Positions 13,729-15,666 of a stretch of DNA of 64,000 bases are shown one piece after another. Each line of letters starts with the position of its first letter. Position 1 is the first letter of the stretch. Location of the stretch: positions 11,013-75,012 of the forward strand of contig JAGRAN010000032.1 of assembly GCA_020434585.1 (NCBI GenBank), given 5' to 3'. The position numbers were made by a program, and so were the translations under genes. The notes below the pieces were generated by a model. It did not search any database and was not told the origin of the DNA. It saw only the letters and a program-made list of their open reading frames with translations. The DNA is from Bdellovibrionales bacterium. Lineage in GTDB: Bacteria > Bdellovibrionota_C > UBA2361 > SZUA-149 > JAGRAN01.

Positions 13729-15666
13729 GTGAAGTTAGGTTTCGGCGAAAACATTTCGTCGCTGCGCGCTCAGCGCAATTTGTCTCGCGTCAATCGCGAG
13801 CTTACCGGGGTGTATACACGGCTCTCAAGCGGCATGCGCATCAATACTGCGAGCGATGATGCTGCCGGATTGGCAATCAGCGAAAGTCTAAACAACGATC
13901 AGCGGGTGTTCGGTCAAGGCATTCGAAATCTCAACGACGGGATCAGCCTGCTTAGCATAGCCGACGGTGCCGTCGAACAACTCACAAACATAACCATTCG
14001 TCTTCAGGAGTTGGCAACGCAGGCCTCTAACGGATCTCTGGGCAACAATCAGCGCCAGGCGCTCGACGAAGAAGCTCAGCAGCTTTCTCAGGAGTATTTT
14101 CGCATTGCCCGAACAACGGAGTTCAACGGTCTGAACCTCTTTGACGGATCTGTGGAAGAGATGCACCTGCAGGCAGGCTACGGCGATAACGGCGGAGTGA
14201 CGTCAGATTTGGGTGGTGGAGTTGGCGACGGCACATTCAGCACACCGGTGGATATGTACATCCCTTCAAACACTACCCGCGCCCTAGCCATACAAACTGC
14301 TGACCTGGATGGAGACGGAAACATCGATATGGTTGGAGCTGGTCGTGAAGGTGCGGGTGGGATTTGGATGGCCTTCGTTCGCATGGGCAACGGTGACGGA
14401 ACCTTTGGCGATGAAACAATTTACGAGGTGGCTAACGGCGTTGCCAGCGTCCGCCTGGGTGACATCAACAACGATGGCAATTTAGATATTATTACCAGCG
14501 GTGTAAATTTAACAGATCAGGATGTTAGTTATCGATTTGGAAACGGGGATGGGACGTTTGGTGAGCTGATCACGATCGGACTTGGGATGGGTGCGGGCAA
14601 TACCTCGTACGGTGCGGAAGTGGGCGACTTCAATGGAGACGGCAATCTTGATATCGTGACGAATGACAACGTCGGAAATACCTATTTGCTTACAGGAAAC
14701 GGAACAGGAGGTTTTGTCGAGACGCATCCAATACCGAACCTCGGCGGCTCGGTTCACGCTCAATACGGCGTGGGCGATATGAATGGGGACGGTATCGACG
14801 ACATCGTTGCCGCGTATGAAAGTGTAGGAGGGAATACGGACCTAGACGTGTACTTCAGCAACGGCGACGGTACGTTTACCTTCAATCAGACAATTGGCAT
14901 CGGCAATGCGGGAATTATCTCAACCACGGCACCTCCATTGCTGGTAGATTTTAACAATGATGGTGCGCTGGATGTGCTGGCCGGCGACGGAGTTGGCTAC
15001 GATGCGCATGTCTTGTTGAATGACGGATCAGGCACTCTAGGTTCGCCAATCGATTTGGGCGGTATAAACGCAGGCTATGAAGCGGCGGACTTCAACGGAG
15101 ACGGCAACCTTGATGTCGCACTGCTCAACACCACAGACACGAGCATTTATCTCGGGGATGGAGAAGGGAACTTTAGTTTGAGTGACAATATTTCCTACTC
15201 TTTTGCCGGACTGCTTATCGGTGTAGGGCCTACGGCTGCCGATGTAAATAACGACGGCGTAACTGATCTAATCGCCCCCGACGGGAATATGTCGGGAGCT
15301 GGGGGAACAATAGAGATCTATATTGGAAACAAAGTAAGCGGAATTTCACCGCTTGAGGATTTCGATTTAGGGACTTTGGCTGGAGCCAAGCAAGCACTGC
15401 CTCTGTTCCAAAAGACTCTGACCAACTTGACGCTGCAGCGGGGAGAGATCGGTGCATTTGAAAGCAGGCTAGATTCTGCGGTTGGAGTGCTGGCTCAGAC
15501 GACCGAGAACCTTGCTGAAGCTGAGTCGCGCATCCGCGATGCGGACGTCGCCCAAGAGGCTGCCGACCTGGTCCGCTTATCCATAATCCAGGAAGCGGCA
15601 GTATCAATCGTCGGTTCGGCAAATCAGCAGTACTCCGTCGCTCTGGGTCTACTTGACCAAGGGTAG
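13729..15666 (+). CDS. Flagellin-like protein whose central hypervariable region consists of FG-GAP (integrin-alpha-like, Ca-binding) repeats
   Basis: The N-terminus (LSSGMRINTASDDAAGLAISE, NDGISLLSIADGA) and C-terminus (RIRDADVAQEAADLVRLSIIQEAAVSIVGSANQQYSVALGLL) match flagellin D0/D1 helices. Between them are seven DxDxDGxxD loops (DLDGDGNIDMV, DINNDGNLDII, DFNGDGNLDIV, DMNGDGIDDIV, DFNNDGALDVL, DFNGDGNLDVA, DVNNDGVTDLI), each preceded by FGNGDGTFG-type FG motifs. GTG start. Confidence 0.85.
   Translation: MKLGFGENISSLRAQRNLSRVNRELTGVYTRLSSGMRINTASDDAAGLAISESLNNDQRVFGQGIRNLNDGISLLSIADGAVEQLTNITIRLQELATQASNGSLGNNQRQALDEEAQQLSQEYFRIARTTEFNGLNLFDGSVEEMHLQAGYGDNGGVTSDLGGGVGDGTFSTPVDMYIPSNTTRALAIQTADLDGDGNIDMVGAGREGAGGIWMAFVRMGNGDGTFGDETIYEVANGVASVRLGDINNDGNLDIITSGVNLTDQDVSYRFGNGDGTFGELITIGLGMGAGNTSYGAEVGDFNGDGNLDIVTNDNVGNTYLLTGNGTGGFVETHPIPNLGGSVHAQYGVGDMNGDGIDDIVAAYESVGGNTDLDVYFSNGDGTFTFNQTIGIGNAGIISTTAPPLLVDFNNDGALDVLAGDGVGYDAHVLLNDGSGTLGSPIDLGGINAGYEAADFNGDGNLDVALLNTTDTSIYLGDGEGNFSLSDNISYSFAGLLIGVGPTAADVNNDGVTDLIAPDGNMSGAGGTIEIYIGNKVSGISPLEDFDLGTLAGAKQALPLFQKTLTNLTLQRGEIGAFESRLDSAVGVLAQTTENLAEAESRIRDADVAQEAADLVRLSIIQEAAVSIVGSANQQYSVALGLLDQG

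Follow-up and report, generated by a model that had tools for sequence, protein, structure and literature searches.

What does a flagellar filament carry on its surface when the usual outer domains D2 and D3 of its flagellin have been replaced by a fold best known from animal integrins? This question is raised by a gene at positions 13729..15666 (plus strand) of a 64,000-nucleotide stretch of Bdellovibrionales DNA (contig JAGRAN010000032.1, assembly GCA_020434585.1), which was analysed as a whole and is called the window below. An earlier note, made from the sequence alone, described its product as a flagellin with an integrin-like FG-GAP beta-propeller in place of D2/D3 and suggested that it forms an adhesive or ligand-binding filament. 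Flagellin outer domains are the place where filaments gain functions other than swimming, and few co-opted ones (e.g., proteases) have been studied. We found that the feature is real and that its structural interpretation is correct; the protein as a whole is likely a genuine filament subunit with a calcium-locked acidic propeller coat, and a use of this coat in binding is put forward tentatively.

Domain architecture and predicted fold

The coding sequence is complete, starts with GTG and has 645 codons plus a stop codon. Pfam analysis placed Flagellin_N at residues 7–141 (E 8.7e-38, 129.9 bits against a cut-off of 26.6) and Flagellin_C at residues 562–642 (E 2.6e-15, 56.9 bits against a cut-off of 23), in agreement with the canonical D0/D1 termini claimed in the earlier note. 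FG-GAP_3 (PF13517) matched seven distinct stretches (E 2.4e-43), and FG-GAP (PF01839) matched with an E value of 5.5e-9; all four families were well over their gathering scores, and Pfam recognised no further domain in the protein. NCBIfam flagellin models scored 176–184 bits through both termini. The best match in a sequence search of PDB was the Stenotrophomonas maltophilia filament 9atl (E 7e-42), and only flagellin cores were matched: the central region had no match in this search, and no solved flagellin matched that part; among PDB entries, the propeller was recognisable through fold comparison only. By every sequence criterion tested (PF00669 and PF00700), the protein belongs to the flagellin family, and it also falls within the FG-GAP propeller superfamily.

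The protein can be divided into an N-terminal D0/D1 segment (residues 1–160, 13729..14208), defined by Flagellin_N, solved filaments and predicted helices; a seven-bladed FG-GAP beta-propeller that replaces D2/D3 (residues 161–545, 14209..15363); and a C-terminal D1/D0 segment (residues 546–645, 15364..15663) with Flagellin_C, all on the plus strand. A full-length AlphaFold2 model, for which an alignment of 60 family sequences was supplied, had a pLDDT of 85.7 and a pTM of 0.80, with helices at residues 5–34, 41–100 and 106–129, a long helical region at 550–644 and a beta-hairpin at 145–159. These boundaries agree with ND0, ND1a, ND1b, the D1 hairpin and CD1/CD0 of Salmonella FliC, suggesting that the inserted domain exits D1 at the usual place of D2. 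When the central 386 residues were modelled alone, pLDDT was 89.8 and pTM 0.90, with 30 strands, and this region is confidently predicted to be a closed seven-bladed propeller of the integrin-alpha FG-GAP type. The top ranks in Foldseek were occupied by the integrin-like fungal lectins AAL2, PAL and PVL (E 3e-12 to 1e-10), followed by CRTAC1 and integrin alpha-V (TMq 0.63–0.69); the full-length model also matched the Streptomyces lectin UmbA4. The Pfam scan and structure prediction, both proposed in the earlier note, thus bear out its seven-bladed propeller through the seven FG-GAP_3 stretches, the confident model and the integrin-type Foldseek matches.

A calcium-loop motif was present in each of the seven blades: DLDGDGNID (residues 192–200, 14302..14328), DINNDGNLD (245–253, 14461..14487), DFNGDGNLD (300–308, 14626..14652), DMNGDGIDD (350–358, 14776..14802), DFNNDGALD (407–415, 14947..14973), a second DFNGDGNLD (454–462, 15088..15114) and DVNNDGVTD (505–513, 15241..15267), all on the plus strand. 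Their number and even spacing (47–57 residues) are as the earlier note had it, and so is the loop type; however, the strict form DxDxDG given there does not hold, the actual pattern being D-x-[DN]-x-D-G-x-x-D. Similarly, a glycine motif does stand ahead of each loop, but the FGxGDGTFG described previously was too regular. G-x-G-D-G-T-F is clean in three blades only (at residues 164, 220 and 271), is one position off at 379 (SNGDGTF), and is degenerate at 323 (GNGTGGF), 433 (NDGSGTL) and 476 (GDGEGNF). The loop aspartates were invariant or nearly so in 60 aligned homologues, so the pattern is not due to chance. The propeller contains 55 Asp and Glu against 6 Lys and Arg (net charge about -49); the family is acidic throughout (median net charge -27.5), and this member is among its most acidic. 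The whole protein has no cysteines.

A family with conserved cores and divergent propeller surfaces

The metagenome-assembled source and the NCBI label, which reads only ‘MAG: VCBS repeat-containing protein [Bdellovibrionales bacterium]’ (MAG, metagenome-assembled genome; protein P0001, 100% identity, on a 94-kb contig), could suggest that a flagellin gene and a VCBS-repeat gene were fused artificially during assembly or gene calling. However, an independent ENA contig encodes an identical protein, and the same architecture, without interruption, was seen in more than 150 homologues from many samples, with junction motifs conserved on both sides of the propeller. A chimera is effectively refuted by these observations, and we give an artefact of either kind a negligible chance.

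In the first homologue search, 120 of the 120 matches listed had the same four Pfam domains (521–668 aa, 39–68% identity); none among the matches listed was marked as UniRef. When representatives at 50% identity were considered, approximately 105 of the best 150 were full-length relatives of 580–670 aa, and this list of the best 150 ends at 365 bits; the family therefore comprises over 100 such clusters. The earlier note had also proposed a search for similar combinations of flagellin and FG-GAP domains: using a regular expression, we found at least 158 fetched proteins with the flagellin N-terminal motif and at least five strict calcium loops, and all seven loops were present in 108 of them. 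The remaining representatives were giant multi-FG-GAP/VCBS proteins (1800–7400 aa, 31–39% identical to the propeller), and the flagellin N-terminal motif was found in none of the 42 that were examined. Almost all source names were MAGs of Bdellovibrionales, Bdellovibrionota or Deltaproteobacteria. A scan of GTDB genomes with universal flagellin motifs gave mainly ordinary flagellins, with L001–L006 as the family members among the matches listed, a scope in which the taxonomic range is under-sampled. Judged by these sequences, FG-GAP flagellins are a large, unnamed and widespread family of uncultured bacteria, and the label ‘VCBS repeat-containing protein’ conceals such genes from surveys of motility genes. 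Four relatives (P0103, P0025, P0013 and P0065) were shorter (521–586 aa), with five or six calcium loops spaced by 47–52 residues. The number of blades may therefore vary within the family, and six-bladed versions are possible.

Conservation differed strongly along the protein. Mean pairwise identity among 60 members was 62% for the N-terminal D0/D1 segment and 57% for the C-terminal segment, compared to 36% for the propeller. Inside the propeller, the scaffold (G-x-G-D-G-T-F and the calcium loops) was 65% identical and other positions averaged 21%; only scaffold residues were kept, and no conserved surface patch was observed across these 60 members.

The same contrast was found within a single genome. 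MAG Co_bin.265 (GCA_030431715.1) has a tandem array of four FG-GAP flagellin genes (616, 621, 622 and 610 aa) with single-base spacers, a spacing which suggests that the four are probably co-transcribed. Pairwise, their D0/D1 cores were 83–93% identical; in contrast, their propellers were 31–38% identical, and non-scaffold propeller positions were 12–20% identical, not above the family-wide average. With near-identical cores and surfaces as divergent as those of the family at large, this genome keeps interchangeable cores with unrelated propeller surfaces. Two more copies lie in tandem on a second contig of this MAG and one on a third contig, making at least seven FG-GAP flagellin genes. The MAG also encodes two ordinary 287-aa flagellins in tandem, whose cores were 51–57% identical to those of FG-GAP flagellins; the loci concerned, for both types together, are L081 6282..13703, L001 1..3700, L086 10001..11836 and L013 10001..11763. 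In addition, each of two large JGI contigs carried two FG-GAP flagellin copies within 10 kb. The fliC paralogues of Bdellovibrio are likewise scattered and multi-copy.

Transcription, assembly and use of the propeller

A putative sigma-28 (FliA)-like promoter, recognised by its likeness to the consensus, TTGAG-N15-GTCGAT(CC) (that is, TTGAG-N15-GTCGATCC), was found upstream of the window gene at 13612..13637 (plus strand); it begins 117 nt before the start codon and its end is 92 nt upstream. The corresponding family motif, T[TC][AG]AG-N15-G[CT]CGA[TC], occurs upstream of other family genes, at an equal distance (-117/-118 from the start) in three other loci, and two loci have near-canonical versions, TTAAG-N15-GCCGATAA and TTAAG-N15-GCCGATAT. 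The family motif is close to the canonical sigma-28 consensus, TAAA-N15-GCCGATAA. The motif had two matches in the whole window compared to 0.61 expected, a count made with a pattern that was partly derived from the same family sequences and that records consensus matches only. Thus, the motifs provide consensus-level evidence for transcription of the late flagellar (sigma-28) class. Closer to the gene, CAAGGA (13713..13718, plus strand) is a ribosome-binding motif and possibly a CsrA site too: in 14 family 5' regions it occurred eight times compared to 0.48 in shuffled sequences, with five occurrences at Shine-Dalgarno distance and three 48–83 nt upstream, a pattern possibly reminiscent of CsrA sites in the leaders of flagellins controlled by CsrA and FliW. 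A scan for sigma-70 promoters and terminators around the gene was uninformative.

We consider it likely that the protein is a true filament subunit whose propeller forms a calcium-locked acidic coat. The gene would be transcribed from a late flagellar promoter of the sigma-28 type, and, as expected from established flagellar biology, the cysteine-free subunit would be exported unfolded via the flagellar type III channel, fold at the tip and polymerise through D0/D1, leaving the propeller outside the filament. Judging from the motifs and from RTX-like secreted repeats, seven Ca2+ ions would lock the blades outside the cell and the domain would be unstable in the cytoplasm; how a beta-propeller of approximately 386 residues folds after passage through the flagellar channel is a question that this family raises. 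The product would be a filament about 20–23 nm wide with a very acidic outer coat, and its functional part would be the hypervariable surface outside the scaffold motifs, presented thousands of times over on a rigid framework. A rough volume estimate (approximately 42 kDa per subunit, axial rise of 4.7 Å, inner radius of 60 Å, packing fraction of 0.35–0.5) gave an outer radius of about 100–116 Å, similar to Salmonella filaments, and the 793-aa flagellin of Geovibrio thiophilus indicates that larger subunits do assemble (PMC11532411). Together, these considerations suggest that sterics are no obstacle.

Several observations weigh against this interpretation. No flagellar apparatus gene (fliD, fliS, flgK/L or motor genes) was detected in the 64-kb window, nor was any apparatus gene seen within 10 kb of the family genes examined at six related loci; the flagellated state of the organism therefore rests on flagellin genes and promoter motifs alone. 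The window motif itself departs from the canonical -35 (TAAA) and -10 (GCCGATAA) elements. Among the matches found, no family member came from a cultured organism. The lack of a conserved surface patch, as judged from the alignment, makes a ligand common to the family unlikely. Finally, the flagellum of cultured Bdellovibrio is membrane-sheathed, and if this lineage is sheathed in the same way, the propeller would not be exposed.

In the last case, the acidic, calcium-loaded propeller would lie beneath the membrane, as a spacer or as a calcium-bridged contact with sheath lipids. Record titles in NCBI and GTDB, which place the MAGs in Bdellovibrionales or Bdellovibrionota, and the extreme acidity of the propeller are in favor of such an arrangement. 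However, it is hard to see why a domain hidden under a sheath should be hypervariable among paralogues of a single genome. Besides, the flagellins of cultured Bdellovibrio are short, and a family-bearing MAG also has ordinary 287-aa flagellins, so the two types may differ in purpose. We regard a sheathed propeller as improbable.

The absence of apparatus genes nearby is also compatible with a protein outside the filament proper, either a FlgL-like protein of the hook-filament junction or a cargo whose flagellin termini serve just as a signal for flagellar type III secretion and which is released as a soluble FG-GAP protein, and JGI labels some relatives ‘flagellin-like hook-associated protein FlgL’. 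The FlgL model TIGR02550 indeed matched in part (97 bits), but this score is under its cut-off of 127.2 and far below those of the flagellin models, and an identity as FlgL was rejected. FlgL is normally single-copy and adjoins flgK, unlike the tandem arrays of two to four genes and the seven or more copies in one MAG described above; several copies in tandem are typical of flagellins. In addition, both ends contain full-length D0 and D1 with FliC-like helix boundaries. A role of this kind is thus very unlikely.

With a filament subunit as the favored interpretation, the use of the propeller can be considered. Our preferred, though tentative, proposal is that beside motility it serves in multivalent, paralogue-specific binding of glycans or surfaces. 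The fold is a classic ligand-binding one, lectins are its nearest Foldseek neighbours, and divergent, probably co-transcribed paralogues fit a repertoire better than they fit antigenic variants expressed in alternation. The adhesive or ligand-binding filament suggested in the earlier note went further than these observations, since the lectins are no more than the nearest neighbours in fold and conservation is confined to the scaffold, with approximately 21% identity at other propeller positions; there is therefore no ligand site common to the family. The absence of a conserved surface fits equally well with a passive coat, i.e., a rigid calcium-stabilised propeller that thickens or stiffens the filament as a variable protective or structural layer and is otherwise free to vary. 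Such a coat, which is an alternative to binding and not to the filament itself, would have diversified under pressure from flagellotropic phages or grazers, or through the mechanics of paralogue co-assembly, rather than through ligand specificity. However, the probable co-transcription of four paralogues is poorly suited to alternating expression for evasion, some 386 aa of propeller in every subunit would be a high price for a passive coat, and the nearest Foldseek neighbours are lectins; we view the passive coat as about as likely as binding and, like it, short of probable. A more specific version of the binding proposal, which we find rather doubtful, envisages a multivalent array of lectins switched by calcium: each genome would supply a repertoire of propellers that differ in specificity and sit on an interchangeable core, and uncultured, possibly predatory Bdellovibrionota would use them to recognise glycans of prey cells or particles and to tether to them. 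A calcium-dependent fold would also leave the large domain unfolded in the cytoplasm, where calcium is low, and let it fold only after export, as an RTX-like ratchet in flagellar secretion. If the propellers do bind ligands, they would constitute a modular display system of natural origin and give flagella a new route to the recognition of cells or particles.

The window encodes a second flagellin paralogue at 33424..34833 (minus strand; 469 aa, probable TTG start at 34833), with Flagellin_N (E 9e-34) and Flagellin_C (E 5e-16) and no FG-GAP match in Pfam. It is 38% identical to the main protein, including the family D1 junction LQAGYG..G.GT, and its center of approximately 210 aa has three calcium-loop remnants at residues 200, 264 and 326 (62–64 residues apart). 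This center may be a decayed or a four-bladed propeller, to judge from these remnants. No clear sigma-28-like motif was present at the usual distance upstream of this gene.

Other genes in the neighbourhood can be described briefly. The region 6562..29327 is rich in envelope and glycan genes, including three GDSL/SGNH hydrolases (7332–8420, 8622–9692 and 28143–29327), a GT2 glycosyltransferase (6562–7323), a fatty-acid hydroxylase (20300–21259), a Wzy_C O-antigen-ligase-like protein (21256–22965) and a PMT_2 glycosyltransferase (26666–28099); no evidence was found that ties these genes to the flagellin. The product of 15719–16849 had no Pfam match and was weakly similar to the GDSL/SGNH hydrolases of the window. 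This SGNH-like gene, the next one downstream of the flagellin gene, was considered as a conserved partner of the flagellin and rejected, as it is one of several GDSL paralogues and had no counterpart beside a relative. On the other side, a 664-aa protein is encoded divergently from the flagellin gene (11306..13300, minus strand) and has a weak sub-threshold match to TraU (E 1.2e-5, 25.4 bits against a cut-off of 26.5); it is followed by a 525-aa open reading frame (ORF) without a family match. Farther away, a cluster at 35795..42132 (minus strand), containing a TonB-dependent receptor, a periplasmic binding protein, an ABC ATPase and a FecCD permease, resembles an uptake operon of the siderophore or cobalamin type; MerC and a PD40 (TolB-like) beta-propeller protein come next. 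Two DUF6502 paralogues lie 6 kb apart (45206..46018 and 51731..52546, minus strand), near a CHAD-domain protein and several ORFs without a family match. G+C content was 0.58–0.61 at 30001..32000, 1..2000 and 4001..6000, compared to about 0.50 elsewhere; the first of these regions contains an M17 leucyl aminopeptidase gene overlapped by a long antisense ORF, which is probably an artefact of composition.

Comparison with known flagellins and propeller proteins

The protein shares its propeller fold with integrin alpha, at 13–16% sequence identity. Integrins have the calcium motif in three or four blades. In contrast, all seven blades of the FG-GAP flagellin have it, and a beta-subunit partner, an I-domain, thigh and calf legs and a membrane anchor are all missing. 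With flagellin and FG-GAP as the sole domains in Pfam and a C-terminus formed by flagellin D0, the protein is not an integrin and has only the propeller fold in common with one. The best Foldseek matches as a group were PVL, PAL, AAL2, UmbA4 and CRTAC1/ASPIC-type FG-GAP_3 proteins (E 3e-12 to 8e-10, TMq 0.55–0.63, 19–24% identity). Propeller lectins are single-domain, calcium-binding, seven-bladed propellers that hold sugars, such as GlcNAc or sialic acid in the PVL/AAL2 type, in pockets between blades, and it is this match to integrin-like propeller lectins that gives rise to the lectin hypothesis. The likeness is by fold only: inter-blade surfaces are not conserved among FG-GAP flagellins, and the lectins are soluble or toxin-associated proteins rather than filament subunits.

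Canonical flagellins, such as Salmonella FliC and the flagellin of G. thiophilus (PDB 9au6), have the same D0/D1 core with an outer domain placed after the D1 beta-hairpin, and they likewise combine a hypervariable center with a conserved core. The G. thiophilus flagellin also has a strongly negative surface, like the propeller described here (PMC11532411). The difference lies in the outer domain, which is Ig-like, beta-folium or helical in canonical flagellins and here is predicted to be a single closed FG-GAP propeller of seven blades, with a calcium motif in each. A beta-propeller in this position has already been noticed from predicted structures: Fields et al. (2024; PMC11532411) used AlphaFold models of annotated flagellins to define 682 clusters of outer domains and reported ‘WD40-repeats in cluster #55’, with no mention of FG-GAP, integrin, VCBS, calcium or Bdellovibrio. 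Cluster #55 may represent FG-GAP flagellins or another propeller. Our full-text literature searches found no description of a flagellin with an FG-GAP, VCBS, seven-bladed or beta-propeller insert. Thus, flagellins with a co-opted outer domain are already known, and the version with an integrin-type propeller is apparently undescribed. This family puts a well-understood ligand-binding scaffold on a polymer of thousands of copies, and it does so in a poorly known lineage, in more than 100 clusters at 50% identity and as repertoires within single genomes.

A characterised precedent is provided by flagellinolysins, such as those of Clostridium haemolyticum and Hylemonella gracilis (PMC7643111), in which a co-opted functional domain replaces the hypervariable region and is present in thousands of copies. 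Unlike flagellinolysins, the FG-GAP flagellin has no peptidase family match in Pfam and no HExxH in its translation, and its insert is a binding or scaffold fold. Among proteins other than flagellins, the nearest relatives of the propeller are the giant multi-FG-GAP/VCBS surface proteins of metagenomes, which have many repeats rather than a single closed propeller between D1 segments. Their sequence similarity to the propeller suggests that such proteins were probably the source of this domain.

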